This document shows, piece by piece, positions 7,364 to 24,947 of a DNA stretch of 64,000 nt (within the stretch, counting starts at the first letter, position 1; the number at the start of each line of letters is the position of its first letter). The stretch lies in contig JAHFCF010000004.1 in NCBI GenBank assembly GCA_023249645.1, positions 821 to 64,820 on the forward strand. The letters are read 5' to 3'. The DNA comes from Elusimicrobiota bacterium. Lineage in GTDB: Bacteria > Elusimicrobiota > Elusimicrobia > UBA1565 > UBA9628. Made by a program: the position numbers and the translations under genes. The notes under the pieces were generated by a model. That model was given only the letters and a program-made list of their open reading frames with translations, searched no databases and was not told the DNA's origin.

Positions 7364-7381
7364 CGCGCGGCTCCGTGCAAG

Positions 7382-7395
7382 GATGATTTTTGTCA
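7382..7395. promoter_or_regulatory. ATGAT-N4-GTCAT inverted-repeat box upstream of Rieske/cyt b/multiheme operon
   Basis: ATGATttttGTCAT at 7382-7395 in AT-rich 115-nt intergenic gap; same box architecture recurs at 11641, 11663, 24934, 58689. Confidence 0.3.
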
Positions 7396-7479
7396 TTTTT
7401 CTTGAGCGCGATTATAACTATGATGCATCTTGAGGATATGGAACAATTTCCTTTATTCCCCGCCGGGAGGGCTTGAGTC

Positions 7480-7914
7480 GTGGAATCCATGACCCGCAAA
7501 AGATTCTTGAACCTGCTCCTGGGCGGCGGCGTGCTGGGCTGCCTCGGCTCGGTGATCTATCCCGTCCTGCGTTATCTGCTGCCGCCCGAACAGGTGGAGG
7601 CCGAGCCGGACACGCTGAAGGCCGGGACGATGAAGGATTTTCCCATCGGAGCCAGCAAGATCTTCAAGTTCGGCCGCCAACCCGTCATCGTGATCCGCGA
7701 CGTCAAGGGCGTCTTCCACGCCTTGACCGCGACGTGCACGCATCTCGACTGCATCGTACAATACAGCAAGGAAGCGGACCTGATCTGGTGCGCCTGCCAT
7801 AATGGGAAATACGATCTGAGCGGCAAGAACATCTCGGGTCCGCCGCCCCGGCCGCTGCAGGCGTTCACGGTGAGCGTCAAGGGCGAGGATGTCCTGGTGG
7901 TGAGGACGGCATGA
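7480..7914 (+). CDS. Rieske [2Fe-2S] subunit of a cytochrome bc/b6f-type complex
   Basis: CTHLDC...CACHNGKY Rieske boxes, N-terminal RKRFLN Tat-like signal; GGAGG RBS 9 nt upstream of GTG 7480. Confidence 0.9.
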   Translation: MESMTRKRFLNLLLGGGVLGCLGSVIYPVLRYLLPPEQVEAEPDTLKAGTMKDFPIGASKIFKFGRQPVIVIRDVKGVFHALTATCTHLDCIVQYSKEADLIWCACHNGKYDLSGKNISGPPPRPLQAFTVSVKGEDVLVVRTA

Positions 7915-8969
7915 ACGTTCTCAGCGGCCAGCTGCTGGATTGGGTCGATGAAAGGCTGCATGTGCGCCCGCTCATCGAGATGGCCCGGCATAAGGCCGTG
8001 CCGGTGCACCGGGGCAGCGTTTTCTATTACGCGGGCGGGGTCTGTCTCTTCCTTTTTATCCTGCAGGTGGCTTCGGGCATCCTCCTCTTGATGTACTATC
8101 GCGTGGGGGCCGACTCTTCCTATGAGAGCGTCCGGTACATCTCCGCGAAGGTGTCCTTCGGCTGGCTCATCCGTTCGGTCCACAGCTGGGGCGCCAACAT
8201 CATGATCTTCTTCGTGCTCACGCATATGTTCAGCGTCTTCCTGATGAAGGCCTTCCGCAATCCCCGGGAACTGACCTGGATGTCCGGCTGCGTCCTTTTG
8301 GGCCTGTCCATGGCTTTCGGATTCAGCGGGTATCTTCTGCCCTGGAACGAGCTGGCCTTCTTCGCCACGAAAGTGGGGACCGACATCATCGGCCAGGTCC
8401 CTCTCGTCGGCCATTGGATGCTCAAGATCGTCCGCGGCGGCGACGAGGTCACGGGGGCGACGCTTTCGCGATTCTTCGGCCTTCACGTGGCCGTGCTTCC
8501 GGCGCTGCTGTCTGTGACCATCGGGCTGCATCTGACTTTCGTGCAGATCCAGGGCATGGCCGAGGTGCGAGAGGCCAAGAAGACCATGCCTTTCTTCCCG
8601 AATTTCTTCCTGCGGGACGCCATGCTCTGGTTGGTGGTCTTGAACGCGGTCGCGATCCTGTCGGTCTTCTTCCCCTGGGAATTGGGCAAGAAGGCCGAGG
8701 CCTTGTCTTCGGCGCCGGCCGGCATCAAGCCTGAATGGTATTTCCTGTCGCAGTACCAGTTCCTCAAGCTCCTGCCGCCGCGCATCCTCCTGATCCCCGG
8801 CGAGCTCTGGGGGATCATGGTGCTCGGTACGACCGGAGGCCTTTTGTTCCTGACGCCCTTCTGGGAGAAAGCCTTGCCTGAAGAGAGGAAAGAGATCGTC
8901 GTCCGCCTGCTCGGTTGGGGAGGCCTGGCCGTGCTCCTGGCCATGACCCTGTGGGGGTACCTCTCATGA
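7911..8969 (+). CDS. Cytochrome b (fused cytochrome b6 / subunit IV type) of the bc complex
   Basis: 352 aa, multiple TM helices with conserved His pairs, PEWYF motif; ATGA overlap with Rieske gene. Confidence 0.9.
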   Translation: MNVLSGQLLDWVDERLHVRPLIEMARHKAVPVHRGSVFYYAGGVCLFLFILQVASGILLLMYYRVGADSSYESVRYISAKVSFGWLIRSVHSWGANIMIFFVLTHMFSVFLMKAFRNPRELTWMSGCVLLGLSMAFGFSGYLLPWNELAFFATKVGTDIIGQVPLVGHWMLKIVRGGDEVTGATLSRFFGLHVAVLPALLSVTIGLHLTFVQIQGMAEVREAKKTMPFFPNFFLRDAMLWLVVLNAVAILSVFFPWELGKKAEALSSAPAGIKPEWYFLSQYQFLKLLPPRILLIPGELWGIMVLGTTGGLLFLTPFWEKALPEERKEIVVRLLGWGGLAVLLAMTLWGYLS

Positions 8970-10201
8970 GGCGCGTGGCGATGACCGTCCTGCTCTCGAT
9001 GCTCACGGCGGGCCCGGCTGCGGCCGTCCAGAACCAATGCGCCGTCTGCCATGCGACTTTGGGCGAGAAGCATCAGGCCATCCTCAAAGCCTTCGACAAC
9101 GACATCCACCGGGAGCGGGGGCTGTCCTGCGATTCCTGCCACGGCGGCAACCCGGCTCTCGACGATGCGGCGGCGGCCATGAGTCCGGATGCGGGCTTTG
9201 TGGGCGCGCCCTCCAAGGCGGACATGCCCAAGTTCTGCGGAAAATGCCATTCCAATCCTGCTTACATGAAGAAGTTCAACCCCTCTCTCCCCGTCGACCA
9301 GGAGCTGACGTACTACACCAGCGTCCATGGACAGAGGCTCAAGGCCGGCGATGCCGCTGTGGCCGCCTGCGCGGACTGCCACATCGCGCACTCCATCAGG
9401 CCGGCCAAGGATCCCACATCCTCCGTCTATGTGAAGAACATCCCGCAGACCTGCGGCAAGTGTCACTCGAATGTCCAGCTGATGGCTCCCTACAAGATCC
9501 CCACCGATCAGCTCGCCCAGTACACCAGCAGCGTGCATGGCAAGGCTCTCTTTGAGAAAGGCGATACCGCCGCTCCGGTCTGCACCACCTGCCACGGCAA
9601 CCACGGAGCCGTCCCGCCGGGCGTCGAGAACATCGGCCAGGTCTGCGGCATGTGCCACGTGCACAACGCGGAGTTCTTCCAGTCCAGCCCCATGGCCAAG
9701 CCCTGGGCCAAACGCAAGTTCCACATGTGCGCCACCTGCCATCATGAGCACGACATCCAGCACCCGACCGCGCAGCTGCTTTCGCCGGACAACGGCATCT
9801 GCATGAAATGCCACAGTCCTTCATCCCCGCAGATCGCGGTCGCTTCCGCCATGCAGAAGAAGCTGGAGTCCATCGAGGACGCTTACCAGCGCGCCCAGAA
9901 GGACATTCTCGCGGCCGAGGAGAAGGGCATGGACATGGCCGAGGCTCGCGATCTTTGGGACGCCTCGCGCATGGCCATGTACCAGTCCAAGACGGCGATC
10001 CATCATTTCAGCGCGGCGAGTGTGGCCGAGGTGGCTGATCCGGGGATCCAGAACGCGGAGAAGGCCGATCAGGCGGCCAAGGATGCGGCGGCGGATTTCC
10101 AGAACCGCCGCATCGGTCTCGGGGTCGCCAGCCTGTTCATCACCTTCCTGGTGGTGGTCATCTACCTCAAGATCAAGGACTTCGAATCGTCCCAGGGCTG
10201 A
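8966..10201 (+). CDS. Nonaheme c-type cytochrome, C-terminally membrane anchored, third subunit of the Rieske/cyt b complex
   Basis: Signal peptide, 9 CxxCH motifs (CAVCH, CDSCH, CGKCH, CADCH, CGKCH, CTTCH, CGMCH, CATCH, CMKCH), C-terminal TM helix; ATGA overlap with cyt b. Confidence 0.85.
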   Translation: MRRVAMTVLLSMLTAGPAAAVQNQCAVCHATLGEKHQAILKAFDNDIHRERGLSCDSCHGGNPALDDAAAAMSPDAGFVGAPSKADMPKFCGKCHSNPAYMKKFNPSLPVDQELTYYTSVHGQRLKAGDAAVAACADCHIAHSIRPAKDPTSSVYVKNIPQTCGKCHSNVQLMAPYKIPTDQLAQYTSSVHGKALFEKGDTAAPVCTTCHGNHGAVPPGVENIGQVCGMCHVHNAEFFQSSPMAKPWAKRKFHMCATCHHEHDIQHPTAQLLSPDNGICMKCHSPSSPQIAVASAMQKKLESIEDAYQRAQKDILAAEEKGMDMAEARDLWDASRMAMYQSKTAIHHFSAASVAEVADPGIQNAEKADQAAKDAAADFQNRRIGLGVASLFITFLVVVIYLKIKDFESSQG

Positions 10202-10208
10202 TCGCTTC

Positions 10209-11630
10209 GTGAATCGGCACGAGAGGCTGGTCGTTCTCATCTGGGTCGCTGGCTCCTTGGCCGGATGCGCCGCCCCTTTGATGCAGGCGTCGACGAAGGG
10301 GGATGCCGAGGCCGCCAGGGCCTGGCTCGACAAGGGTGCGGACCCCGACGTGCGCGGAGGGTATCGCCATGGGGAGACCGCCCTCATGGCCGCCGCGGCG
10401 GGGGGGCATCTCCCCGTCGTCAAGCTTCTCGTGGAACGAGGAGCGAAGGTCAACGCCGCCGGCGATCGCGGAGAAACCGCTCTGATGCGGGCCGTGCATC
10501 ATGGATACCTGCCCATCGTCCAATACCTGATCGAGAAAGGCGCGGACGTCAATCACAAAGGGATACAGGGTACGACCGCCCTGCATTATGCGGCCTGGAG
10601 CAGCCGTGACGAGATCGTCCAATGCCTCTTGGACCATGGCGCTGACGTCAACGCCGCCGACGAGATGACGATCGGCCGTACGCCTCTGGGCCTGGCGGCC
10701 TATTTCGGCGATCAGGCCGTGGCGCAAGTTCTTCTGAGTCGCGGTGCGGATGCGCGCATCCTTGCGGCCAACGGCAAGCTGCCGGCGGAGCTCGCGACCC
10801 AGCGGGGCCATGGGGAGATCTCCCAAATGATCCGGCGCGCCATGGCCGGAGAATTACCCCAGGCGGCGGCATCGGCCCCGGCCTCCTTTTCCGATGAAGA
10901 CATGCCCCAATACCATCTCCGCCAGAAGCCGGACAATTACGCCGTTGTGGTGGGAGTCTCGAACTATGCGGGCCTGCCTCAGGCGCCTTTCGCGCGCCAC
11001 GATGCCCAAGCCGTGCGCGATCATCTCGCCGCCCTGGGCACCCCGCTCGACCACATCCTGTTTCTGACCGACAACGAGTCCACCCGGGCTGGTCTGGTCA
11101 AAACCCTGGAGGCGCGCCTTCCCCGTCTTGCTCAGGAACGCTCCACGGTTTTTTTCTATTTTTCAGGGCACGCGCTTCTCGAACCCAAGACCGGACGCAT
11201 CTTTTTGGCGCCCATGGATGGCGACGCCGAATTCCTTGAAGAGACGGCCTACCCGCTGGAGCGCCTCTCTCAGGATTTGGGAGGGCTCAAGGCGGCTCGC
11301 GTCCTGGCGATGTTGGAATGGGACTTCCCAGGAGTCCAGGAGCCGTCAGTCTCAACTCCAGCGCCCATGGGGAAAATCCTGGCATGGACATCTTCTCGTC
11401 CTGGGGAGTTTTCCGGTACGCTCCCGGAGCAGAGCCATGGGGCATTCACCTACTTCCTGCTGCGCGGTCTCAATGGCGCGGGCCAAGACGGCGCCGGCGC
11501 AATCACGGCCCGAGCCCTCTACGATTATGCATCGGCGCACGTGCAGGAGACAGCGCGCCGGCTCGGCCGCGAGCAGACTCCTCAATGGTCGGCCGTTTCC
11601 GCTGGAGCGGATTCTCTGAGATTCCGCTAG
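10209..11630 (+). CDS. Lipoprotein with ankyrin repeats fused to a caspase-like (peptidase C14) domain
   Basis: GTG start gives lipobox LAGC; >=5 ankyrin repeats (GETALMxAxxxGHLxxVxxLxxxGAxVN); C-terminal YAVVVGVSNY...FFYFSGHA caspase His-Gly block. Confidence 0.75.
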   Translation: MNRHERLVVLIWVAGSLAGCAAPLMQASTKGDAEAARAWLDKGADPDVRGGYRHGETALMAAAAGGHLPVVKLLVERGAKVNAAGDRGETALMRAVHHGYLPIVQYLIEKGADVNHKGIQGTTALHYAAWSSRDEIVQCLLDHGADVNAADEMTIGRTPLGLAAYFGDQAVAQVLLSRGADARILAANGKLPAELATQRGHGEISQMIRRAMAGELPQAAASAPASFSDEDMPQYHLRQKPDNYAVVVGVSNYAGLPQAPFARHDAQAVRDHLAALGTPLDHILFLTDNESTRAGLVKTLEARLPRLAQERSTVFFYFSGHALLEPKTGRIFLAPMDGDAEFLEETAYPLERLSQDLGGLKAARVLAMLEWDFPGVQEPSVSTPAPMGKILAWTSSRPGEFSGTLPEQSHGAFTYFLLRGLNGAGQDGAGAITARALYDYASAHVQETARRLGREQTPQWSAVSAGADSLRFR

Positions 11631-11640
11631 TTTTTTAAAC
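11607..11640 (+). terminator. Weak candidate intrinsic terminator after ankyrin-caspase gene
   Basis: agcgga-(11 nt)-tccgct stem followed by TAGTTTTTT. Confidence 0.25.
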
Positions 11641-11676
11641 ATGACAAATATCATCTTTAACCTTGATGTCTGTCAT
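11641..11676. promoter_or_regulatory. Two tandem ATGAY-N4-RTCAT boxes upstream of the Cyc2-like gene
   Basis: ATGACaaatATCAT (11641-11654) and TTGATgtctGTCAT (11663-11676), 70-100 nt upstream of start at 11743. Confidence 0.3.
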
Positions 11677-11742
11677 TCTCTTGAAAAATAGGAATTGTTA
11701 GATTCTTCAGCCGTTGAATTTTAAAAACAATCAGGGGGAAAC

Positions 11743-13092
11743 ATGCCAGAAGCACAAGGAACCGGGAGCAAAAAATTCGGAGTCGGCTTTATTCTCTTTT
11801 CGGTGCTTTTCACAGCCTGGCTTGTTCCGCCTCTGTATCGCGGGATCCAAGGGATCTGCCCCATGCGGCCGGGCCTTATTAAGGAAGCAGGGGCTGTCCC
11901 TGGCTTCGCCCGCAAATACGGCCTGAGCTGCTCACAGTGCCACACGGCCTGGCCCCTCCTCAATGATTACGGCCGGCAGTTCAAGCTCAACGGCTATGTG
12001 CGCGAACCGGGAAGCAAGGAAGGAGTTTTGGAAGGGTCGGGAGGGTATTGGACTGAGAAGATATTCCCCTGGGGCGTGGTGGCGCGTTCGCGGCCCTATG
12101 ACAAGAACACGACCGTCGACAGGGAGTTCCGCTTCCAACCTATCCAGGACGCGGACTTCTTCGTCGCTGGCGGGGACGCGGCCAAGCATATCTCCTGGTT
12201 CGGAGAGGTCGACGCCAACAACACGACCGACACGGCCTTCAGCGTGAACATGGCCGACATCCAAGCGGGCTACCATCCTAGCCAGTACCTCAACATCATC
12301 GCCGCCCGCCGCGGTTTCTTCGTCATGGATCCCTACCAGAACATCTCCAACTTCGGCAGCCCGACGATCACGGGACGCGCCATCGCCGGAGGCCAGACCG
12401 ACCAGGGCAACCTCTCGGGCAACGTGATGGACCAGACCACCCAGACCATGTTGGCTTTCGGTGAGGTGGACAAAGAGGGATTGGGAGCGCTCTACTACGC
12501 CGCGGGCATGTCGGCCGGAAACGCCAACGACACCGGCACGAGCGCCAAGGCCGGCAACCTGCGCCTGGCCTACGACACGCTCAAGGGCCTCGAGATCGGG
12601 GCCTTCGGCAGCTCGGGACGCGAATACAACGGGCTGGTGGATCAGAACGGCAACCAAGACCGGGTCAAGTTCACCAAATACGGGCTCGACTACACGCTCG
12701 AGGCCAAGGGCTTTGTCAGCCGCGGCGCCTGTCTCGTGTCCAACGAAAAGGACGAACAGTTGGCCAACTCAACGGTGGAGGTGGATGAGAACGGCAATCC
12801 CGTGATCAAGTCCACCACCAAGGCCGCCTATGCCGAACTTCTCTATGTCTATAAGAGGCAGGGCGACACGTTCCCGTTCCTCGTGCCCTTGGTGCGCGAG
12901 AACTGGTACACGACCTTCAACGGCAAGAGGAGCTTCAACTACGTCACGGCCCAGCTGGCCCATTACTTCGCTCCCAACATGAAGGGATTCGTGGAATGGT
13001 CCGGAGACACCAAGCAGGACTTGCAGGGCGTCAATAACGTGAGCTCTGCCAAGAGTTCGCGGTGGAGCCTGCAGTTCGAATTGGGCTTCTAG
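11743..13092 (+). CDS. Candidate Cyc2-like fused monoheme cytochrome c / outer-membrane beta-barrel porin
   Basis: Signal peptide, single CxxCH (CSQCH) within first ~70 aa, then ~380 aa of alternating amphipathic beta-strand-like sequence ending in ...LQFELGF (C-terminal Phe typical of OM barrels). Confidence 0.6.
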   Translation: MPEAQGTGSKKFGVGFILFSVLFTAWLVPPLYRGIQGICPMRPGLIKEAGAVPGFARKYGLSCSQCHTAWPLLNDYGRQFKLNGYVREPGSKEGVLEGSGGYWTEKIFPWGVVARSRPYDKNTTVDREFRFQPIQDADFFVAGGDAAKHISWFGEVDANNTTDTAFSVNMADIQAGYHPSQYLNIIAARRGFFVMDPYQNISNFGSPTITGRAIAGGQTDQGNLSGNVMDQTTQTMLAFGEVDKEGLGALYYAAGMSAGNANDTGTSAKAGNLRLAYDTLKGLEIGAFGSSGREYNGLVDQNGNQDRVKFTKYGLDYTLEAKGFVSRGACLVSNEKDEQLANSTVEVDENGNPVIKSTTKAAYAELLYVYKRQGDTFPFLVPLVRENWYTTFNGKRSFNYVTAQLAHYFAPNMKGFVEWSGDTKQDLQGVNNVSSAKSSRWSLQFELGF

Positions 13093-13111
13093 TCCGACAG
13101 GAGTTCTGTTC

Positions 13112-13639
13112 ATGAAAGGACGAGGCATCGCCGGAGGTCTGGCCATTGCGGCCGTGCTGTGGGGCGCGGGAGAGCTCCGGTCTCAGGATGAGGAGGTCAA
13201 GACATTCCCTTTCGACAAGGGTCCTGAGACCATCGACGTGTCGAGCTATCCCAAGGAACAGCAGGACAACTATCCGGTCTTCGCCGAGAAGTGCTCCAAA
13301 TGCCACACCCTGGCGCGGCCGATCAACTCGCCCTTCGCCCTGCCCGAGGAGTGGGATGCCTACGTCCACAAGATGCAGCACAAGAAGCGTTCAGGCGTGG
13401 ACGCTGACAGCGCCAAGACGATCATCGACTTCCTATCCTATGACTCCTCCGTGCGCAAGAAGGAGATCCTCGCCAAAAAGATCCAGGAGAAGAAGGACGG
13501 CAAGTACGACCTGCAGGCGGTGATGGACGCCGCCGAGAAGCAGGCCCAGACGGCGGCCCCGAAAGATGAATCGCAGCCCAAGGAAGCCGATAAATCTGCA
13601 GCGCCACAAAAGGCGGAGACTCCTAAAAAAGGCGACTGA
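13112..13639 (+). CDS. Periplasmic monoheme c-type cytochrome with Lys-rich C-terminal tail
   Basis: Signal peptide, single CSKCH motif, 175 aa; 20 nt downstream of Cyc2-like gene. Confidence 0.6.
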   Translation: MKGRGIAGGLAIAAVLWGAGELRSQDEEVKTFPFDKGPETIDVSSYPKEQQDNYPVFAEKCSKCHTLARPINSPFALPEEWDAYVHKMQHKKRSGVDADSAKTIIDFLSYDSSVRKKEILAKKIQEKKDGKYDLQAVMDAAEKQAQTAAPKDESQPKEADKSAAPQKAETPKKGD

Positions 13640-13758
13640 CTCTCATTTTTCATCTGACGACGCAAAAGTTTTTTCAAATAGAAGCTGTGCCTTGGAAAAA
13701 GTTCCCCATGGCGACTTGCGGAACGAAAAGTGCTTATTATTTCATCATTTCTTCGATG

Positions 13759-13782
13759 TTTACTTTCAGCGCTGAAAGTAAA
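13759..13782. promoter_or_regulatory. 24-bp perfect palindrome (TTTACTTTCAGC|GCTGAAAGTAAA) upstream of actA; candidate operator
   Basis: Perfect inverted repeat in the 236-nt AT-rich gap before ACIII operon, ~26 nt upstream of a TATAAT (13808-13813). Confidence 0.35.
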
Positions 13783-13875
13783 AACAAAAAAATCTTTCAA
13801 TTTTCAGTATAATTTCATCCCGAGGTCGCCATTTTTTTAGACAATCGGATTTTTAAGACCATTTCACTGGCAGCC

Positions 13876-14928
13876 GTGGTCTTTCTTCGGCTGACCACTC
13901 CGGCCTTGGCCGCGAAGGCTCCTTCCCAGATCCAAAAATCAGCCGCCCTTTTCATCATGAAATGCGCCAAGTGCCACACGATCGGCGCCGGCGACCGCGT
14001 GGGGCCGGATCTGAGGGGGGCCGCTGACAGGCATGAACGCGAGTGGCTCGTGAAATTCATCATGAGTCCGGGAGTCTTTCTGGCCTCTGACCCCGCGGCC
14101 CAGAAACTTCTGGAAAAATACAACGGCGTACGCATGGAGGAGACGCATCTGGCTCGCGCGGACGTGGAAGGCATCCTGGAATATCTCAAGGCCGCCAGCG
14201 CCGGCGGATTGTCCTCGCAGGCGCCTCTTGCCGTCGAGGAAGAGCCCATGCGTCTCAAAGTCCGAATGCCGGAGGAGGGTTTCTCCGTCTTCTGGCCGGG
14301 GCTGGCGTTCCTTTTCCTTCTTTTGGCAGCGGCGGCGGCGCTTTGGCAATTTAGAGGCCATCGGCCGGCGATAGCCCTCTTGTTCGTCTGCGCTGCACTC
14401 GCCTATTGGACCTTCGGCGGCCGGCGCTACTATCACCTTTTGGGGAATCAGCAGGGCTATGAGCCGGTCCAGCCCATCGCTTTCTCCCACGCGCGCCACG
14501 CCGGGAGCCTGGGCATCGCCTGCCTCTACTGCCATTATGCGGCGGAAAGAAGCGATGTGGCGGCCGTGCCTGCGGTCAACGTCTGCATGAATTGCCACGG
14601 CGCCGTGCGCAAGGCTTTCTCTGCCAAGACCCCTTCCCCCGAGATCGCCAAGCTGCTTGCCGTCTGGGAGAAGCATGAGGCCTCGATCCCCTGGGTCAGG
14701 GTGCATCAGCTGCCGGATTACGTCCATTTCACGCACAGGATCCACGTCAACAATAATATCCAGTGCCAGGAATGCCACGGCCCCGTGGAGACGATGGAGC
14801 GCGTCCGGCAGGCCAGCGCGCTCTCCATGGGCTGGTGCATCGCCTGCCATCGCCTCAAGACGGGCGACGCGCCGTCGCACTGGAAGCGCGCCAGCGGGCC
14901 GCTGGACTGTGCGGCCTGCCATTGGTGA
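13876..14928 (+). CDS. actA: Alternative complex III subunit ActA, hexaheme (extra N-terminal class I monoheme domain + pentaheme domain, two TM helices)
   Basis: CAKCH...GP.L class-I domain, two hydrophobic helices, then CLYCH, CMNCH, CQECH, CIACH, CAACHW; GTG start. Confidence 0.85.
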   Translation: MVFLRLTTPALAAKAPSQIQKSAALFIMKCAKCHTIGAGDRVGPDLRGAADRHEREWLVKFIMSPGVFLASDPAAQKLLEKYNGVRMEETHLARADVEGILEYLKAASAGGLSSQAPLAVEEEPMRLKVRMPEEGFSVFWPGLAFLFLLLAAAAALWQFRGHRPAIALLFVCAALAYWTFGGRRYYHLLGNQQGYEPVQPIAFSHARHAGSLGIACLYCHYAAERSDVAAVPAVNVCMNCHGAVRKAFSAKTPSPEIAKLLAVWEKHEASIPWVRVHQLPDYVHFTHRIHVNNNIQCQECHGPVETMERVRQASALSMGWCIACHRLKTGDAPSHWKRASGPLDCAACHW

Positions 14929-14936
14929 GAGAGAAC

Positions 14937-17813: not shown

Positions 17814-17819
17814 AGACCG

Positions 17820-19196
17820 ATGTCTGAAAAACATTTCTCAGTCCTGCGCGTGCCACTCGTCGACGGCGACAAGGATTGCCGGCAGGTCACCCGGGACATC
17901 TGCGCTCCCCTTCAAGTCGGCCCCACCCGCCTTTGGTACATCAGCTTCGCCGCCGCCGTGACGGCCTTGCTCATCGGCGTGACCGCGGTCACGGATCAGA
18001 TCTGGACCGGCATCGGGACCTGGGGCCTCAATAAGACGGTCGGCTGGTCCTGGGACATCACCAACTTCGTGTTCTGGGTCGGCATCGGCCATGCCGGCAC
18101 GCTCATCTCCGCCATCCTTTTCCTCTTCCGTCAGCACTGGCGCACCTCCATCAACCGTTCGGCCGAGGCCATGACCATCTTCGCCGTCATGTGCGCCGGA
18201 GTCTTCCCCGTCATCCACATGGGTCGGCCCTGGCTGGCCTATTGGGTCCTGCCCTATCCCAACCCCATGGGGCCTCTGTGGGTCAACTTCCGCTCCCCCT
18301 TGCTGTGGGATGTCTTCGCCATCAGCACCTATTTCACCATCTCGCTGACCTTTTGGTACGTGGGCCTTCTGCCGGACCTGGCCACCGCGGCCCGGGAGGT
18401 CGCCGAGCCTTGGCGGCGGCGCCTGTACAGCTGGCTGAGCCTCGGCTGGGACGGCTCCCAGAGGACCTGGTCCCACTACGAGAAGCTTTATCTGCTGCTG
18501 GCCGGACTGGCCACGCCGCTGGTCTTCTCCGTGCACACCATCGTCAGCTTCGACTTCGCCACCTCGATCGTCCCCGGCTGGCACACGACGATCTTCCCTC
18601 CCTACTTCGTCTGCGGCGCGATCTTCTCGGGCTTCGCGATGGTGCTCAGCCTCATGCTCATCGCGCGCCGGGTCATGAACTTCGAGGACTACATCACCCT
18701 GCGCCACATCGACGCGATGTGCAAGATCACGCTTCTCACCTCGCTCATCGTCGCTCTGGCTTACTCGACCGAGCTCTTCACCGCCTGGTACAGCGTCAAC
18801 CCTTACGAACGCTTCGCCTTCCTCAACCGCATCGAGGGCCCCTACCACTGGTTTTATCTGGTGATGATGACCTGCAACGTGGCCGTTCCCCAGGCCCTTT
18901 GGTCCAAGCGCGTGCGCACCACGCCCTGGGTGGTGTTTCTCATCTCGATCGCCATCAATATCGGCATGTGGCTGGAGCGCTTCGTGATCATCACGGTGTC
19001 CCTGCACCGGGATTTCCTGCCTTCCAGCTGGACGATGTACCATCCGACCTATATCGAGATCGCCACCTTCATCGGCAGCTTCGGACTCTTCTTCACCTGC
19101 TTCCTCCTTTTCTGCCGCCTGCTGCCGATGATCGCGATCAGCGAGATCAAGGGCGTGCTCCATCACGCGCGCCGCGCCCCGGGGGACGAGTCATGA
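17820..19196 (+). CDS. actC: Alternative complex III subunit ActC (NrfD/PsrC-family quinol-interacting membrane subunit)
   Basis: 458 aa polytopic membrane protein, NrfD-like; position after ActB. Confidence 0.9.
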
Positions 19197-19711
19197 ACCG
19201 CCTCTGGGTGGGGATCTTCGACTCGCACGAGCATCTGTTGCGCGCGACGCGCTTGGCCCGCCAGCGCGGCTTGACGATCCACGATACCTATGCGCCCTTC
19301 CCCATCCACGGCATGGATGAGGCCATGGGCCTGGAGCCGTCGCCCCTGGGATGGTTGTGCTTTCTCTTCGCCATGACAGGTCTGACCTTGGCGCTCTCAT
19401 TCCAATACTGGGTCTCGGTCTTCGACTGGCCCATGAACATCGGCGGAAAATCCTACAATGCCTCGCCCGCGCTGCTGCCCATCGCCTTCGAGTTCACCGT
19501 CCTGTGCGCCGGATTGGGCAGCGTGGCGGCCTTCCTGTTCCTGCGCCGGCTCTCCCCGGGCAAAAAGCCGGCCCTGGGCGGCTTGGGCGCTCTCGATGAC
19601 CGATTCCTGCTGGCCCTCCAGGCCGGGCCCGAGGCCTCCGCCGAAGAACTGCGCCGTTTCCTGCAGACGCAGGGGGCCTTGGATATTCACGAGGTGGCGC
19701 CAGACTCATGA
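19193..19711 (+). CDS. actD: Alternative complex III subunit ActD (DUF3341-type membrane subunit)
   Basis: [26 protein letters not shown]... with two TM helices; ATGA overlap with actC stop; only the in-frame 3' part of ORF 18191..19711 is real. Confidence 0.8.
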
Positions 19712-22056
19712 GGCGAAATCCCCTGCTGGCGGCAGGCCTTCTGCTCGCGGCGGCTGTCCTCACCTTCCTTCTGGCCGCCCGCCGCGACCTTAAGGAGCCG
19801 CACATCCACCTTTTCAGCGACATGATCACTTCTCCCGCCTACCACTCCCAAAGGCCCAATCCGGTTTTTCGCGACGGCCAGACCCAGCAGGCGCCGCCTC
19901 CCGGGACGATCCCCAGGGGATTTACGCCGTTTCATTACGGACCAGGCAGCGATGAGCGCGAGCGCGCCGGCAACGAGCTCAAGAACCCATTGGTGCCCAG
20001 CTATGAGGTCATGACTCGGGGCAAACATGTTTTTGAGAATTTCTGCGCCCATTGCCACGGACTCAAGGGGCGCGGCGATGGGCCCGTGGCCAGGGCTTTC
20101 CCTTCTTTTTCCTTTCCGGTCGCCAGCCAATCAGCCTACGCGCTCAAGGATGGGACTCTGTTCCACATCATCACCTGGGGCCGCAACCTCATGCCCTCGC
20201 ACTCTTCCCAGCTCTCCCAGGCGGATCGCTGGCAGCTCATCTATTATCTGCGCGACCTGCAGCGCCAGGAGATCGTGCGCCTGGGACCTCTGGCCGCCAT
20301 CCCCGAGGATCCGCGCCGGCGGGGCCTGGTCTCCAGGGATTACGGGCGCGAGCTCTTCGCCCAGAACTGCGCGGGCTGCCACGGGGAGGAGGGCCGCCAT
20401 CCCTTGCCGGGCATCCCCACCCTCCATGCTCCCAGCGTGCTGGCCATCGCCGAGGACAGCTATTATTGGGACATCATCAACCATGGGCGCCGCGGCACCC
20501 AGATGCAGGCTTGGAAGGATATCCTGACCGCCAGCCAGATCCAAAGCCTGATCGCCTATATCCGCTCATGGGCGACGCCGGTGACGGAACTCACCAAGAT
20601 CCTGGCTCAGCGCGGCGACTCCCAGCGCGGGCAGACGCTTTTTGCCCGGCAGTGCGCCGGCTGTCATGGAGCCGACGGCCGGGGAGGCATCGGGATCTCG
20701 CTCAAGGCCCCTTCGTTCATGGCGATCGTCTCGGATCAGTTCCTGCGCGACACCATCGCCATGGGCCGTGAGCACACGGCCATGCCCTCTTCCTATGATT
20801 TCAAGCCCGCGGATATCGCGGATATCATCGCGTACTTCCGCAGCTGGTCCGAGGCCGCTGCTGCCTATGTGGATGTGGCGCCCCTGATTTCGGCTGCTTC
20901 GGCATCGAACGGAGCCAAGCTCTTTCAGGCCCGATGCGCGGGCTGTCATGGAGCCAAGGGGGAAGGCGGGATCGGATCGCGGCTCAACAGCGACGGCTTT
21001 TTGGCCATGGCTGACAATAAATTCCTCTATCGCGTGATCGTGGAAGGCCGGCCCGGCACCGAGATGCCCGCCTGGCGCTTCCTCTCAGCCACCGAGCTCG
21101 CCGGGCTCATCGCCCAGATCCGCGCGTGGCAGAAGTCTCCCTCCGTGGTTTTGTCCACCGGGCCGGTCAAGGGCCGCTCTGAGTTCGGCGAAGTCCTCTA
21201 TCAGAAGGAATGCATCAAGTGCCACAGGGCCGGCGGGGCCGGCGATCTGGGAACGCAGATCGGCAATCCCGCCCTCCTGTCACAGGTCAGCGACCAGTTC
21301 CTTTGGCGGACGATCGCCTATGGCAAGAAGGGCACGGAGATGCAGGGCTTCCTCAAGAGGACGCGCAACCCGCTGCCCGAGGAGGATATCGGCCATCTCG
21401 TCGCCTATCTGCGGCAGATGCAAAAAAATCCGCCGCAGGAACTGCTCAAACGAACCTATTCCTGGGCCTCAGCAGCGGACGGAAAAAAAGTTTTCGAGGG
21501 TAAGGGCAAGTGCTTCAAGTGCCACGGGCTCCATGGGGAAGGCGGCAGCGGACCTTCCTTGGGAGGTCCCGGATTTCAGAGAGTGGCTTCAGCCGGCTTC
21601 ATCGCGGCCACGCTGGTGCTGGGCCGCGACAACACGGAAATGAAATCCTATGTCCGCGGCGGCGATGTCCAGCTCGGCGAGGAAGACATCGAGAACGTCT
21701 CGACCTATGTCCGCGGCTTCGAGAAGAATCCGCCTGCCGCGCCCCGGCAGGTGGACCGCTCCGAGATCCAGGTCAAGGCAGGACGCGCTCTCTTCCTGCA
21801 GAACTGCGCCAAGTGCCATGGCCGGCAGGGGCAGGGCTTGCACGGTAAGAAGGAGGGCGAGTTCGCGCCTTCCCTGAACAACGTGGATTTCCTCAGGGCG
21901 GCCGATGACAACTTCCTGCTGGCCACCATCGCCCTGGGCAGGCCCGGTACGCCCATGCCGTCCTTCGCCAAGGGCGACGTCGCAGTCCAACCGCTCCAGG
22001 CCGAGCAGATCCGCCAGGTGGTGGCGTTCATCCGGTCCTGGGAGAGGGGAAAGTGA
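19708..22056 (+). CDS. actE: ActE-like cytochrome c subunit extended by six additional class I monoheme cytochrome c domains (7 CxxCH total)
   Basis: N-terminal TM anchor and ActE-like region with CAHCHG, then CAGCHGEEG, CAGCHGADGRGG, CAGCHGAKGEGG, CIKCHRAGGAGD, CFKCHGLHGEGG, CAKCHGRQGQG each followed by G(T)xMP Met-ligand motif; ATGA overlap with actD. Confidence 0.85.
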   Translation: MRRNPLLAAGLLLAAAVLTFLLAARRDLKEPHIHLFSDMITSPAYHSQRPNPVFRDGQTQQAPPPGTIPRGFTPFHYGPGSDERERAGNELKNPLVPSYEVMTRGKHVFENFCAHCHGLKGRGDGPVARAFPSFSFPVASQSAYALKDGTLFHIITWGRNLMPSHSSQLSQADRWQLIYYLRDLQRQEIVRLGPLAAIPEDPRRRGLVSRDYGRELFAQNCAGCHGEEGRHPLPGIPTLHAPSVLAIAEDSYYWDIINHGRRGTQMQAWKDILTASQIQSLIAYIRSWATPVTELTKILAQRGDSQRGQTLFARQCAGCHGADGRGGIGISLKAPSFMAIVSDQFLRDTIAMGREHTAMPSSYDFKPADIADIIAYFRSWSEAAAAYVDVAPLISAASASNGAKLFQARCAGCHGAKGEGGIGSRLNSDGFLAMADNKFLYRVIVEGRPGTEMPAWRFLSATELAGLIAQIRAWQKSPSVVLSTGPVKGRSEFGEVLYQKECIKCHRAGGAGDLGTQIGNPALLSQVSDQFLWRTIAYGKKGTEMQGFLKRTRNPLPEEDIGHLVAYLRQMQKNPPQELLKRTYSWASAADGKKVFEGKGKCFKCHGLHGEGGSGPSLGGPGFQRVASAGFIAATLVLGRDNTEMKSYVRGGDVQLGEEDIENVSTYVRGFEKNPPAAPRQVDRSEIQVKAGRALFLQNCAKCHGRQGQGLHGKKEGEFAPSLNNVDFLRAADDNFLLATIALGRPGTPMPSFAKGDVAVQPLQAEQIRQVVAFIRSWERGK

Positions 22057-23216
22057 TGAGCGAGAGAGAGGGGATTTTTCGTCCGGATCAAAGGACCGTT
22101 CTGCGGCTCTGCATCGCAGCGGGCCTGGCGGCTTTTGCGGTCGGCCTGTGGAGGGCTCCCCACCGCGCCTGGGCCGGCCTGCTGCTCGGCAATTTTTATT
22201 TTCTGTCTTTGGCCCTGGCGGGAGCCGTCTTCCTGGCCGTGCAATATGCCGCCGGCGCCGGCTGGTTTGCCCTCTTGAAGCGCATCCCCGAGGCCATGAC
22301 CGCCTATCTGCCCGTCGGCGCAGGGCTGGTGGGCTTGCTGGGTCTCTGCGGGCTGCGGGATCTCTATGTTTGGGCCAACCCGGCCACGGCTTCCAATGAC
22401 CCGATCCTGCTGGCCAAGGCGGCGTTCCTCAATGTCCCCGGCTATCTCCTCACGGCCGCGGTCTGCCTGCTCCTCTGGCATTTCTTGATCCGAGGACTCG
22501 TGGCCAATTCCCAAGCCCAGGATGACAACGGCGATCTGGCTTATACGGCCAAGAACGCCCGGTTGTCCTGCATCTTTTTAGTCGTGTTCGCGCTGACTTT
22601 TTCCCTGGTGAGCATGCAATGGCTCATGTCCCTGGAGCCGCACTGGTACAGCACGATCTATCCCTGGTATCTGTTCGGGGGGATCTTCGTCAATGCCGTC
22701 GCCGTCATGACCCTGCTGCTCCTGCTTTTGCGCCATCGGGGGCTGCTGCCGGAGGTGCGCGCCGGGCACCTGCATGATCTCGGAGAATATCTCTTCGCGT
22801 TCAGCGCGTTGTGGGCTTATCTCTGGTTCTCGCAATACCTCCTGATCTGGTATTCCAACATCCCTGAAGAAACCGTTCACTATGCGGCACGCTTTGGTCC
22901 GGGTTGGAACATCCTCTTCTGGGCCAACCCCGTGGTCAACTTCATTGTTCCCTTCATCCTTCTGCTGGAGGAGAGGAGCAAGAAAGACGAGCGGAGGCTT
23001 TTGGCCGCGACGCTGGTTTTGATCGCAGGCCACTGGCTGGATCTCTACCTGCTTGTTTTTCCAGCGATCCTTCCCCGTCCGCTCCTGGGATTCATCGAAC
23101 TCGGGATGTTTTTGGGTTTGGCGGCCGCCTTTCTTTTGCGATTCGATCAGGCCTTTCGCCGAGCCCCGCCGATCCCGTCGCGGGATCCTTTTTTAGGCGA
23201 AAGCCTGCATCATTAG
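22056..23216 (+). CDS. actF: Alternative complex III subunit ActF (second NrfD-like membrane subunit)
   Basis: ~386 aa polytopic membrane protein; start ATG 22056 overlaps actE stop by 1 nt (or GTG 22053). Confidence 0.85.
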   Translation: MSEREGIFRPDQRTVLRLCIAAGLAAFAVGLWRAPHRAWAGLLLGNFYFLSLALAGAVFLAVQYAAGAGWFALLKRIPEAMTAYLPVGAGLVGLLGLCGLRDLYVWANPATASNDPILLAKAAFLNVPGYLLTAAVCLLLWHFLIRGLVANSQAQDDNGDLAYTAKNARLSCIFLVVFALTFSLVSMQWLMSLEPHWYSTIYPWYLFGGIFVNAVAVMTLLLLLLRHRGLLPEVRAGHLHDLGEYLFAFSALWAYLWFSQYLLIWYSNIPEETVHYAARFGPGWNILFWANPVVNFIVPFILLLEERSKKDERRLLAATLVLIAGHWLDLYLLVFPAILPRPLLGFIELGMFLGLAAAFLLRFDQAFRRAPPIPSRDPFLGESLHH

Positions 23217-24863
23217 TTAAGGCTTGAGCACCGCGCCGTCCGGGTGGCATTCCAGGCATTTGGCTCGGAAATCATGCTTGAGCGGCACGCGCTTGTGCGC
23301 GCCGATGTCGTGGCAGCTCACGCAGCCCATCATGTCGGTGTGGGCTTTATGCGGCATGGTCTTGCCGGCGAAGCGCACCGTTTCCGGAGGAACTTTCACC
23401 CCGATGCGGCCGTGGCATTGCAGGGCGCAATAGCTGCCGGAAAGCAGGGGCTCAGAGGAGATGTCGGGAAGATCGGCGTGGAGTTCTCTTCCCGCTTCGT
23501 CGAGGCTGCGGTCCAGAGTGCGCAACAGGACCGAGGCAAGGTAGATGTTGTGCGGGCCGTGGGCTGCTTGCAGGAAGGCGCGTAGACGCTCCGCCCGCTT
23601 CACGGCTGCTGCAGCCGCTGGCTGCGGGGTCTTCTCCAAGGCTGAGCGCGCGGCCGCGATCTTGTCGCCGGTCTTGGTCATGGCGGAATCGAGTTCCGCG
23701 CGCATCTCCTCCAGGATCCCCTGGAATTTGGCGCCGTGGCACTTGACGCAGGATTCGGGGGAAGGCTTCATAGTGTGGCCGCGAAAATCCGTGTCCGGTC
23801 CGGTCTCCGCCTGGTAGTGGCAGCCGTTGCAGTCCACATGGGCCAGATACATGGGGCTGGCCAGCTCCGGCAGGCCCACGGCCAGGTCCGGTCTCAACTT
23901 TCCGCAATAGAGCTGCAGCTGAGCCAAGTGCTTGTCCTCATGGCAGAGGCTGCAGTCGAAGACCAGGGTCGGCGGATGTCCGGCTGGAGCGGCGGCCGGC
24001 GCCGCGGCGGCGGCCGCGCCGGGCAGCTTGAGCGGCTGCTCTTGGGTCTGGAACCCATGCCGGATCTCTTCGTGGCAATGGAAGCAGGCGATGTTGTGCT
24101 TGGTGACGTGGTTTTCGTGGATGAATGGGATATCGCCGTAGCGGGCGAGATTCTCAGGCTGGTTGTGGCAGAGCAGGCAGCGTTCCTGCGGGGCTTTGCC
24201 CTTGCCCTGCACGGCTTCGAGATGGCAGTTCTGGCAGGAGACTCCCTGCCGGGTGACGAAGTCGCGGTGATTGTAGGTCATGTTGCCGAGCTGGAACGAT
24301 TTTTTCGGGAGATCGTGGCAGCCCAGGCAGCCCCCGATGGGCTTGAGTTCCTTGCCCTCTCCGCGCCCGCGGAAATGGCACAGGAAACAGGTATCATAGG
24401 TCACTTCGATATGCTTGCCGACCACGACTTGGGAATGGCAGGAGACGCATCGCAGCTGCCGGCCGCGGCGGGTTTCGGTGATGTGCGGCCGATGATCGAA
24501 GTGGATCCCGCTCTTGGTGAGCACCTTGCCTTGCAGCAGGCGCGTGGCGTGGCAGCCGGAGCGCAAACAGGAAGAGTCCTCGACCTCGGCAAAGGGCTTG
24601 GAGGAGTAGGTGCGGGTCACGTATTTGACTACCTGGGAGAGGGCCTGGAACTTCTTCCAGAGCAGGGTCCGGTGCGAGCTGGGGGGGTAATGACACTCCA
24701 CGCAGGCGATGTGATTGTGCTTGGAGGAGTGCCAGGCTTGGTAATAGGGCTCCATGATGTGACAGGAGCGGCAGAAGGAGGGGCTTGTGGAGTATTTGAC
24801 CAGACCGGCCATGATCAGAAGGACGGCCAGGCCCAGGCCGGCCAGCATCCGGATTGGTTTCAT
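23217..24863 (-). CDS. Membrane-anchored NapC/NirT/NrfH-family multiheme cytochrome c (13 CxxCH + 2 variant CX3-4CH motifs), ImcH-like
   Basis: N-terminal TM helix followed by FCRSCHIMEPYYQAWHSSKH...CVECH (NapC/NirT signature start), then CVSCH, CFLCH, CLGCH, CQNCH, CLLCH, CFHCH, CSLCH, CNGCH, CVKCH, CVSCH, CLECH plus CLRSGCH and CALQCH. Confidence 0.8.
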   Translation of the reverse strand: MKPIRMLAGLGLAVLLIMAGLVKYSTSPSFCRSCHIMEPYYQAWHSSKHNHIACVECHYPPSSHRTLLWKKFQALSQVVKYVTRTYSSKPFAEVEDSSCLRSGCHATRLLQGKVLTKSGIHFDHRPHITETRRGRQLRCVSCHSQVVVGKHIEVTYDTCFLCHFRGRGEGKELKPIGGCLGCHDLPKKSFQLGNMTYNHRDFVTRQGVSCQNCHLEAVQGKGKAPQERCLLCHNQPENLARYGDIPFIHENHVTKHNIACFHCHEEIRHGFQTQEQPLKLPGAAAAAAPAAAPAGHPPTLVFDCSLCHEDKHLAQLQLYCGKLRPDLAVGLPELASPMYLAHVDCNGCHYQAETGPDTDFRGHTMKPSPESCVKCHGAKFQGILEEMRAELDSAMTKTGDKIAAARSALEKTPQPAAAAAVKRAERLRAFLQAAHGPHNIYLASVLLRTLDRSLDEAGRELHADLPDISSEPLLSGSYCALQCHGRIGVKVPPETVRFAGKTMPHKAHTDMMGCVSCHDIGAHKRVPLKHDFRAKCLECHPDGAVLKP

Positions 24864-24933
24864 GATTTTTTGCCTTTGTAATTAGATAGCATATCGCGAG
24901 AGAAAACATGCATGACTTATGTTTTATATAAAT

Positions 24934-24947
24934 ATGACATTTGTCAT
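24934..24947. promoter_or_regulatory. Perfect ATGACatttGTCAT box in divergent region between the NapC-like cytochrome gene and gltA
   Basis: 14-bp box of ATGAY-N4-RTCAT type in 137-nt AT-rich divergent promoter region. Confidence 0.3.

Follow-up and report, generated by a model that had tools for sequence, protein, structure and literature searches.

Why does a bacterium of the Elusimicrobiota keep genes for a cytochrome bc-type complex, a Cyc2-like cytochrome-porin, an alternative complex III (ACIII) and a 13-heme membrane cytochrome side by side within some 17 kb? The genes occupy positions 7380-24863 of the window, by which we mean the whole 64-kb stretch of DNA analysed here, and an earlier account made from its letters alone (the sequence-only reading) had proposed that they serve Fe(II) oxidation and perhaps electron transfer in both directions. 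The answer we favour, with a probability of roughly 0.55, is that the locus is an FNR-controlled respiratory island of an uncultured diderm Elusimicrobiota bacterium, used at low O2, in which a Cyc2-like protein would oxidise Fe(II) and pass the electrons through a 175-residue cytochrome to ACIII.

Open reading frames were filtered by third-position G+C and by counts of CXXCH motifs and were then scanned against Pfam and NCBIfam; because the G+C content of the window is about 62%, many of its open reading frames are spurious. Transmembrane helices were counted with a crude hydropathy scan. All the genes named in the sequence-only reading were found where it had placed them (Table 1), and its family labels of bc-type complex, Cyc2-like fused cytochrome-porin, ACIII and NapC-type multiheme cytochrome are correct. 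Gene spacing divides the interval into four units: the Rieske, cytochrome b, nonaheme cytochrome c and ankyrin/pseudo-caspase lipoprotein genes (unit 1), the cyc2-like gene with that of the 175-residue monoheme cytochrome c (unit 2), actABCDEF (unit 3), and the divergent pair formed by the 13-heme NrfH-type cytochrome and gltA (unit 4). The genes of unit 1 overlap or lie 7 bp apart, 19 bp separate cyc2 from the monoheme gene and 0-8 bp separate the act genes, while the spacers between the units are AT-rich and 112, 236 and 137 bp long. A scan of positions 7200-25100 for sigma-70 promoters and terminators gave counts indistinguishable from those of shuffled sequence, and the operon boundaries are therefore based on gene spacing alone. 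An Rfam scan of the whole window gave no match.

Fe(II) enters the argument through the 449-residue protein of unit 2. Members of the Cyc2 family are recognised by a signal peptide, a single CXXCH, the motifs AXPXFAR[Q/K][T/Y] and PXL, a length of at least 365 residues and a 16-stranded barrel resembling OprO/OprP, and the first of these motifs, just upstream of the CXXCH, is described as unique to Cyc2 (PMC8406198). The sole CXXCH of the window protein stands at residue 63 and is invariant in 36 homologs. It is preceded by A51-V-P-G-F-A-R-K-Y59 and GLS, in which P53, R57 and Y59 are invariant in 24 family members, and the C63SQCH itself is followed by TAW-P71-L-L73, which places PXL four residues past the CXXCH, with P71 and L73 also invariant. 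In an AlphaFold2 model built from the 36 homologs (pLDDT 82.9), 16 long strands fall within residues 110-448, and a Foldseek search with this model returned 16-strand porins, including OprO (4rjw), at E-values of about 1e-10 to 1e-8; both the length and the barrel are thus those of the family. The N-terminus carries KK followed by a hydrophobic segment (residues 13-31). The motifs and the modelled fold make membership of the Cyc2 family well supported. A homolog that is 45% identical to the window protein lies in locus L012, which is MAG (metagenome-assembled genome) 13 of an earlier study that placed the homolog in a Cyc2 tree and proposed Elusimicrobia as iron oxidisers (PMC8357290). The Elusimicrobia proteins also share an extra conserved segment, W..PP......CP.RP (residues 26-43), in which Cys39 is nearly invariant; it sits between the hydrophobic N-terminus and the Cyc2 motif, in a region where the model has low confidence.

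The partner gene encodes a periplasmic cytochrome c with no significant relative in the PDB. We considered whether it might be a relative of ActE and rejected the idea, as its BLASTP similarity is confined to the heme motif and no PDB relative was found. Named homologs of the 449-residue protein, of ActE and of the 13-heme protein are overwhelmingly from Elusimicrobia/Elusimicrobiota MAGs, and the identical protein is encoded on metagenome contigs of 117-162 kb.

The third element, unit 3, contains six co-linear genes for subunits ActA to ActF, homologous to those of the solved ACIII structures from Flavobacterium johnsoniae (6BTM) and Rhodothermus marinus (6F0K), with the same six subunits in the same order and E-values from 1e-25 to 1e-180. 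ActE departs from the solved structures, in which it has 162-209 residues and one heme; the window protein has 782 residues and seven CXXCH motifs, arranged as an N-terminal transmembrane anchor, a canonical ActE domain (residues 30-188) and six more class I cytochrome c domains, which gives seven class I heme domains in all. Since ActE has seven CXXCH motifs and only residues 30-188 are canonical, we have filed the complex as a variant: the act genes encode a genuine ACIII with a heptaheme ActE. No oxidase genes follow the window operon, another difference from the two structurally characterised systems. The ActE form of about 780 residues is conserved in dozens of proteins from Elusimicrobia and Planctomycetes MAGs, and a study of Planctomycetes seemingly saw the same clusters, with this subunit labelled 'ccoP' and the cluster matched to no described complex (PMC10732223). 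The extra N-terminal class I domain of ActA matches residues 46-144 of 6btm_A and is not new because it is also present in the F. johnsoniae ActA. ActC is 77-82% identical to its orthologs in L022, L023 and L081.

Both ends of the act operon have unusual features. Upstream of actA there is no canonical start codon far enough away to supply the full signal peptide seen in orthologs; after the stop codon TAA (13855-57) the frame reads ACC ATT TCA CTG GCA GCC GTG, and therefore actA has an ATT or CTG start, or a very short signal peptide, or the assembly is in error. At the other end, a terminator-like hairpin (GATCCCG...CGGGATC with a T-run, 23171-23217) lies within the last 45 nt of actF, and no bases separate the stop codons of actF and of the convergent 13-heme gene.

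Whether these three elements belong together can be judged from related loci. A genome-collection search with an alignment of 24 closer Cyc2-like sequences found relatives in MAGs of Elusimicrobia recovered from groundwater, soil and acid mine drainage, and 24 loci with a full-length relative of the Cyc2-like gene were compared, several of them cut short by contig ends. In 17 of the 24 a monoheme homolog is found no more than 1.5 kb from cyc2, and in nine an ActB homolog is found within 10 kb, while the long (heptaheme) ActE is near cyc2 in three, the ankyrin/caspase lipoprotein beside it in four and a cytochrome b beside it in one (and in the partial locus L025). The arrangement of ACIII relative to cyc2 varies: it is downstream on the same strand (L007, L023 and L081), upstream (L022) or on the opposite strand (L010). 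A fourth arrangement, found in L005 (13387-20029), L008, L011 and L021, has an ACIII-like cluster after cyc2 and the monoheme gene, with a short ActA, a split ActB, two NrfD-like proteins and a second monoheme gene. An ActB divided in this way is reminiscent of the ACIII-like clusters described in proteobacterial iron oxidisers (PMC4643136). In L081 the order is ankyrin/caspase lipoprotein, cyc2, monoheme gene, two small genes and actABCDEF with a seven-heme ActE; there is no bc-type operon, and roughly 8 kb past actF an ortholog of the 13-heme gene shares an operon with a CbcL-like gene. L022 unites ACIII, two cyc2 paralogs, an FNR-like gene, a different Rieske/cytochrome b set and the ankyrin/caspase gene in another order. 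The conserved core pairs cyc2 with the monoheme cytochrome; ACIII or an ACIII-like cluster is a frequent addition and the lipoprotein an occasional one, and the full 17-kb order is specific to this genome. Of the synteny that the sequence-only reading put forward as a check, the linkage of cyc2, monoheme cytochrome and ACIII and the shared regulation recur; the bc-type operon, the 13-heme gene and the full order do not. In L013-L017, which form an Elusimicrobia clade, the neighbourhood (about 8200-14900) consists of a CRP/FNR gene, a box of the kind discussed below, genes for a 149-residue protein and a CBS-pair protein, cyc2, a monoheme c gene and three radical-SAM/SPASM-like genes, whose position suggests a maturation function linked to cyc2.

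These comparisons bear on the simplest alternative, that independent respiratory operons have become neighbours in this one genome by chance. No related locus reproduces the order of the four modules, and in L081 unrelated genes replace the bc-type operon and the 13-heme gene, both of which speak for chance. However, sub-clusters recur in relatives, L022 brings ACIII, cyc2, an FNR-like gene, Rieske/cytochrome b genes and the ankyrin/caspase gene together in a different order, and three of the units share a DNA box that is 15- to 150-fold over-represented. We regard accidental contiguity as highly improbable, and for the core of cyc2, monoheme cytochrome and ACIII it is largely excluded.

The box in question, ATGAYNNNNRTCAT (ATGAY-N4-RTCAT), had been noted upstream of the bc-complex operon, the Cyc2-like gene and the NapC-like/gltA region. 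It has exactly three matches in the 64 kb, at 7383, 11641 and 24934, all of them intergenic and upstream of these units. When the whole window was shuffled, 0.19 matches were expected and none of 100 shuffles reached three; a second control, made since AT-richness could inflate the count, shuffled only the 7.7 kb of AT-rich intergenic sequence, and here 0.019 matches were expected and none of 5000 shuffles reached three. The shared box is thus not a product of chance. Weaker second boxes lie exactly 22 bp from two of the three (at 11663 and 24912). The centre of box 1 is 29.5 nt from the hexamer TATGAT (7419-7424), and that of the proximal cyc2 box (11663) is likewise 29.5 nt from TAGATT at 11699, a spacing that would correspond to the geometry of a class II activator.

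A core of TGA-N6-TCA is the signature of the CRP/FNR family. Compared with the E. coli FNR consensus, TTGAT-N4-ATCAA, the 14-bp palindrome of the window agrees in its TGAY-N4-RTCA core and in spacing and differs in its outer base, which is A...T and not T...A. A Fur box was considered and rejected by eye: the ATGAC/GTCAT half-sites and the GC-containing spacer (L013-L017) misfit GATAAT repeats, and the core fits CRP/FNR. In related loci, CRP/FNR genes lie immediately upstream of cyc2 in L010, L013-L017, L021, L022, L024, L026 and L027, and tblastn identifies those of L010, L024, L026, L027, L021 and L022 as orthologs (34-53% identity) of the window regulator at 37809-38564. The spacers between regulator and cyc2 in this second set contain FNR-type boxes (TTGATAAAAATCAA, TTGACAAAAATCAA, TTGACTTTTATCAA and CTGACTTTTATCAA), of which TTGATAAAAATCAA is the E. 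coli FNR consensus; the canonical form stands beside cyc2 in L024, L010 and L027. In L013-L017 the same box, ATGACCYAGGTCAT, lies between the CRP/FNR gene and the cyc2 operon, and in L082 ATGATCTATATCAT is found 73 bp before a cytochrome c-cyc2 operon, with its centre exactly 29.5 nt from TATAAT. We conclude that the box is a predicted FNR-type operator and that cyc2 expression in Elusimicrobia is, to judge from these motifs and neighbours, typically under the control of the CRP/FNR family.

Two genes in the window could supply the regulator. The product of 37809-38564 has an E--SR recognition helix and N-terminal cysteines at positions 7, 8 and 15, and with its orthologs upstream of cyc2 it is the best candidate for the box-binding factor. 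The iron-sulphur cluster of E. coli FNR is bound by Cys20, Cys23, Cys29 and Cys122; the second regulator aligns with the NCBIfam Fnr profile over residues 18-244 (profile positions 17-243), and its Cys21, Cys24, Cys30 and Cys123 fall on these ligand positions. Just upstream of an operon for an MtrA/DmsE-family decaheme cytochrome and an MtrB/PioB-like porin, beside the first FNR-like gene, the half-sites of the box recur with a 6-nt spacer (ATGACAAAAAGGTCAT, ATGAC-N6-GTCAT, 37739-37754).

The ACIII operon has no such box and is preceded instead by a 24-bp palindrome, which is, as the sequence-only reading had it, perfect and present once in the window. It was not found upstream of actA in L007, L022, L023 or L081. 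We rejected the possibility that it is the intrinsic terminator of the cyc2-monoheme unit, as a loop is lacking and neither strand carries a T-run; it is probably the operator of a dimeric regulator.

FNR-type boxes are also found at 58649 and 58689, in the region common to a quinol-dependent nitric oxide (NO) reductase (qNOR) and the divergent rrf2-hcp genes. They belong to an NO-related cluster (55100-60799) that comprises a DUF438-hemerythrin-PAS protein, qNOR and rrf2-hcp; hcp and NO-reduction genes are among the targets of classical FNR/NNR regulons, as predicted here. With a box before gltA and boxes before qNOR/rrf2-hcp, the regulator would appear to be global and not specific to one pathway. 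This is one point in favour of a more ordinary account, a branched micro-oxic or denitrifying chain in which ACIII and the bc-type complex are quinol:cytochrome c oxidoreductases that feed oxidases, the Cyc2-like protein has some other role (for example that of a redox porin) and the operons are adjacent through their common FNR control with gltA, qNOR and hcp. The window is indeed full of energy metabolism (tricarboxylic acid cycle genes, a hydrogenase and cytochrome c biogenesis), every characterised ACIII is a forward quinol oxidase (PMC4643136), and most Cyc2 homologs are functionally unverified (PMC8406198). However, the linkage of cyc2, monoheme cytochrome and ACIII (or its relative) survives rearrangements in Elusimicrobia, which a global regulon alone does not predict, and the Cyc2-specific motif and fold are fully conserved. 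We consider the ordinary chain somewhat unlikely.

In the bc-type complex of unit 1, the Rieske 2Fe-2S protein and diheme cytochrome b are encoded together in overlapping genes, as expected of the bc1/b6f type, and the cytochrome b scores 217 bits against the NCBIfam cytochrome b6 profile, which is under the cut-off of that profile. The third redox subunit is neither cytochrome c1 nor cytochrome f; a nonaheme cytochrome c is encoded in that place, and we take it to stand in for cytochrome c1/f in what is predicted to be a bc-type complex with a multiheme subunit. Complexes of this kind occur in other non-proteobacterial lineages. The ankyrin/caspase gene had been described as interrupting the cytochrome modules, a description that we set aside: its start lies 7 bp past the nonaheme gene, which makes it the final member of the bc-type operon, and its orthologs adjoin cyc2 in relatives (L081 8305-9747, L004 12038-13390, L021 3737-5188 and L022 18079-19281). 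The caspase His/Cys dyad is not conserved among five orthologs (the window protein keeps the His and has Asp in place of Cys, and the others have the Cys and no His), and on this ground an active protease was rejected. The lipoprotein is probably a non-catalytic scaffold.

In the reading that we prefer, Cyc2-like Fe(II) oxidation linked to ACIII, the path would begin at the outer membrane, where the Cyc2-like protein would oxidise extracellular or dissolved Fe(II) or another outside donor. The electron would pass to the 175-residue cytochrome c, which could hand it to the heme-rich periplasmic face of ACIII made up of hexaheme ActA and heptaheme ActE. From there it may join electrons from quinol on the way to a terminal cytochrome c oxidase whose genes lie elsewhere; alternatively, ACIII, the bc-type complex or both may run in reverse and reduce quinone. 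No autotrophy genes were seen in the window, and we favour the shared exit to an oxidase over an obligatory uphill path because MAG 13 was reported to be without carbon fixation genes (PMC8357290). A sensor of the FNR family, for which 37809-38564 and 42192-42944 are the candidates, would control units 1, 2 and 4 and probably qNOR/hcp; its binding sites would be TGAY-N4-RTCA boxes with their centres some 41.5 bp ahead of the transcription start, and low O2 or NO would lead it to turn the units on. We infer this path from homology only, and its direction, substrate and regulator are likewise inferred. It fits the Cyc2-Cyc1-ACIII/bc1 model for neutrophilic Fe(II) oxidation (PMC4643136) and the strong induction of ACIII that Fe(II) causes in Sideroxydans (PMC8788666). 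A bolder form of the same idea would make ACIII the inner-membrane end of a dedicated assembly for iron oxidation across the envelope, a Cyc2-ACIII 'respirasome' with an FNR-type O2 switch, in which the membrane-anchored heptaheme ActE would act as a periplasm-spanning wire, the 175-residue cytochrome and the ankyrin/pseudo-caspase lipoprotein would provide the scaffold, and Cyc2 would be contacted directly with no diffusible carriers, in the Elusimicrobia and the Planctomycetes that share the ActE of about 780 residues; we think this decidedly unlikely.

Several observations weigh against Fe(II) oxidation through Cyc2 and ACIII under FNR control. Of the widely distributed Cyc2 homologs, only three, one from each cluster, have a characterised function (PMC8406198). 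The strict box is missing from L081, which is the closest long relative, and from L022, L023 and L084, and ACIII, having a different and non-conserved palindrome, may not be co-regulated with the other units. The bc-type genes adjoin cyc2 in only two other loci (L022 and L025), where they are a different paralog, and the 13-heme gene is beside cyc2 in none of the 24. Within the window there is no cytochrome c oxidase. The NO reductase that the sequence-only reading had offered as an electron exit is present; qNOR is the only terminal reductase in the window, and it takes its electrons from quinol.

The 13-heme gene raises the question of direction. Its product has 13 CXXCH motifs together with one CX3CH (residue 479) and one CX4CH, its sole PDB relative is NrfH (2j7a_C, 1.3e-07 over residues 8-73), and it scores 67.5 bits against NCBIfam NrfH, under the cut-off of 134. 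A single hydrophobic segment (residues 1-25), the similarity to the NapC/NirT/NrfH (NNT) family and a first motif, CRSCHIM, of the NrfH type CXXCHXM place it in that family; because the family is tetraheme, we regard the protein as an extended variant. It shares the single N-terminal helix and CXXCHXM with NrfH, NapC, NirT and CymA and differs in having 13-15 heme motifs against their four, and by analogy with them it presumably exchanges electrons with the quinone pool. More than 1000 homologs are spread across several phyla at about 50-75% identity to the query. The label 'ImcH-like', given to it in the sequence-only reading, does not hold. ImcH has three N-terminal transmembrane helices (one in rare homologs), a membrane-adjacent CX3CH and 6-10 hemes (PMC6295460, bioRxiv 10.1101/2023.05.03.539133), while the window protein has one helix, CXXCHXM as its first heme motif and 13 CXXCH; a survey found no ImcH homolog in Elusimicrobia (PMC6295460).

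A second electron transfer cluster (34872-42944, minus strand) encodes the MtrB/PioB-like porin, the MtrA-like decaheme cytochrome, the first FNR-like regulator, ccsA/ccsB (system II cytochrome c biogenesis), a CbcL/MtoC-type fusion and the second FNR-like regulator. The fusion joins a multiheme domain within the range of 3-23 CXXCH typical of CbcL/MtoC/MtrH proteins to a C-terminal HydC/FdnI-like diheme b domain, with three to six transmembrane helices by the crude scan. It is the only CbcL-like gene, and although one was said to lie beside the cytochrome cluster, its position, 40336-42378, is outside the interval. In L083 (4086-7722), the reading frame of the 13-heme ortholog overlaps that of a CbcL-like gene (multiheme plus cytochrome b) at the end of the latter, a sign that the two proteins may work together.

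On these genes one can build an outward or bidirectional extracellular electron transfer system, in which quinol would be oxidised via the 13-heme protein, the CbcL-like protein, ACIII or the bc-type complex and the electrons would leave through periplasmic cytochromes and the Cyc2-like and MtrAB-like conduits to Fe(III)/Mn(IV) under anoxia, with inward flow when Fe(II) is the donor. The presence in the window of a DmsE/MtrA decaheme cytochrome with an MtrB/PioB-like porin, a CbcL/MtoC-type fusion and an NrfH-type 13-heme protein speaks for such a system, as does the operon that the 13-heme ortholog forms with a CbcL-like gene in L083, and FNR-type control suits anaerobic induction. However, CymA-, CbcL/MtoC- and Mtr/Mto-type modules are shared by organisms that oxidise Fe(II) and organisms that reduce Fe(III) (PMC6295460), and because both carry them they tell nothing of electron direction. 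The claimed homology to ImcH, the one family reported only in reducers, fails on three of the four features that define it. Among the window genes there was no sign of an MtrC/OmcA-type surface cytochrome, and the 13-heme gene is unlinked to cyc2 in all relatives (0 of 24 loci). To our knowledge no Cyc2 has been shown to work outward. We judge extracellular electron transfer of this kind unlikely, and the bidirectional capability put forward in the sequence-only reading is a conjecture built on families without directional meaning (PMC6295460) and on an ImcH homology that fails.

Acidithiobacillus ferrooxidans has a rus operon with the order cyc2-cyc1-cox-rus and a petI bc1 operon. The window resembles it in that cyc2 is followed by the gene of a periplasmic cytochrome and in that a bc-type complex belongs to the iron-respiratory set; it differs in having ACIII beside cyc2 and neither rusticyanin nor an aa3 oxidase in the cluster, and the organism is of an unrelated lineage and probably no acidophile. 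Uphill operation of bc1 is cited in PMC8788666. The parts list is also that of the Cyc2/Cyc1/ACIII/bc1 model for Zetaproteobacteria and Gallionellaceae (PMC4643136, PMC7029218, PMC8788666), and here the sequence-only reading was sound in matching the two (PMC4643136, PMC8788666). In contrast to those model systems, the window comes from another phylum, one without a cultured iron oxidiser; the Elusimicrobia loci physically cluster cyc2, periplasmic cytochrome and ACIII; the partner is a 175-residue monoheme protein with no detectable similarity to characterised carriers; ActE has seven hemes, and the bc-type complex has a nonaheme subunit.

Other parts of the window add to its metabolic setting. 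Downstream of the cytochrome cluster (25001-32719) are gltA, GTP-PEPCK, a TPR protein, icd and aconitase, a set for the tricarboxylic acid cycle and gluconeogenesis. An HdrA-like flavoprotein, MvhD, the small and large subunits of a NiFe hydrogenase and hypA are encoded at 45411-51279, which looks like a cytoplasmic Mvh/Hdr-type hydrogenase beside the cytochrome clusters.

Table 1. Genes and DNA elements of the window, with the matches on which each assignment is based
Feature	Position	Strand or location	Basis
FNR-type box 1, ATGATTTTTGTCAT	7383-7396	upstream of Rieske/cytochrome b operon	exact pattern match
Rieske [2Fe-2S] subunit, Tat-like N-terminus	7489-7914	+	Pfam Rieske 49.4 bits (cut-off 20.3); CTHLDC and CACH motifs
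Cytochrome b, fused b6-like N-terminal and subunit-IV-like C-terminal parts	7911-8969	+	Pfam Cytochrome_B 157.3 bits, Cytochrom_B_C 31.7 bits
Nonaheme c-type cytochrome, C-terminal transmembrane anchor	8966-10201	+	9 CXXCH; transmembrane helix at residues 383-401; Pfam multiheme families
Lipoprotein with ankyrin repeats and degenerate caspase (C14) domain	10209-11630	+	Pfam Ank, Peptidase_C14; lipobox LAGC
Tandem FNR-type boxes, ATGACAAATATCAT and TTGATGTCTGTCAT, 22 bp apart	11641-11654 and 11663-11676	upstream of cyc2	
Cyc2-like fused monoheme cytochrome-porin, 449 residues	11743-13092	+	Cyc2 motifs and AlphaFold2 fold; no Pfam match
Periplasmic monoheme cytochrome c, 175 residues	13112-13639	+	one CXXCH
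Perfect 24-bp palindrome, TTTACTTTCAGC/GCTGAAAGTAAA	13759-13782	94 bp upstream of actA	unique in window
ActA, hexaheme: N-terminal class I domain, 2 transmembrane helices, pentaheme domain	13876-14928	+	6btm_A 1.2e-48, 6f0k_A
ActB, molybdopterin-like with 4Fe-4S	14937-17813	+	6btm_B 1.2e-180, 6lod_B, 6f0k_B
ActC, NrfD-like quinone-interacting membrane subunit	17820-19196	+	Pfam NrfD 85 bits
ActD	19193-19711	+	Pfam ActD 167.8 bits
ActE variant, 782 residues, 7 hemes	19708-22056	+	7 CXXCH; first 200 residues match 6btm_E 1.9e-25, 6f0k_E
ActF	22053-23216	+	6btm_F 2.2e-66, 6f0k_F 2.3e-54
Membrane-anchored NapC/NirT/NrfH-type cytochrome (13-heme), 548 residues	23217-24863	-	Pfam Cytochrom_NNT 31.8 bits (cut-off 24.1)
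FNR-type box 3, ATGACATTTGTCAT, with weak second site	24934-24947 and 24912-24925	between 13-heme gene and gltA	
gltA	25001-26293	divergent to 13-heme gene	
MtrB/PioB-like porin	34872-36863	-	weak MtrB_PioB match
DmsE/MtrA-family decaheme cytochrome	36829-37728	-	TIGR03508 233 bits (cut-off 192)
FNR-like regulator	37809-38564	-	Pfam cNMP_binding, HTH_Crp_2; NCBIfam Fnr/FtrB/FixK below cut-off
CbcL/MtoC/MtrH-type fusion	40336-42378	-	11 CXXCH; Pfam Ni_hydr_CYTB 49.2 bits (cut-off 30.1), residues 473-654
Second FNR-like regulator	42192-42944	-	NCBIfam Fnr 88.8 bits (below cut-off)
qNOR	56382-58661	-	Pfam NorB_cytochrome_c-like 191 bits, COX1 186 bits

No new kind of system emerges from this analysis: the parts are all of known kinds, and bidirectional extracellular electron transfer is unsupported. 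The statement in the sequence-only reading that the combination is not well described was too strong, since Cyc2 (PMC8357290), ACIII (in lineage IV; bioRxiv 10.1101/765248) and CbcL/MtoC homologs (PMC6295460) have each been reported in Elusimicrobia. What we did not find described in the searchable literature are the conserved linkage of cyc2, monoheme cytochrome and ACIII, the FNR-type control of cyc2, the heptaheme ActE as an ACIII subunit and the recurrent ankyrin/pseudo-caspase lipoprotein. What ACIII does in neutrophilic iron oxidisers has been described as 'highly speculative' (PMC4643136), and the case for its role has so far been based mainly on co-occurrence and one transcriptome (PMC8788666). 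That cyc2, cytochrome and ACIII (or an ACIII-like cluster) stay together through several rearrangements in a phylum not related to the proteobacterial iron oxidisers is independent evidence, from genomic context, for a functional link between Cyc2 and ACIII. The locus also offers concrete objects in the form of a defined operator, two candidate regulators, a conserved monoheme partner, a heptaheme ActE and a conserved lipoprotein. The case for groundwater and soil Elusimicrobiota in iron cycling, which had been based on the presence of one gene (PMC8357290), is strengthened.

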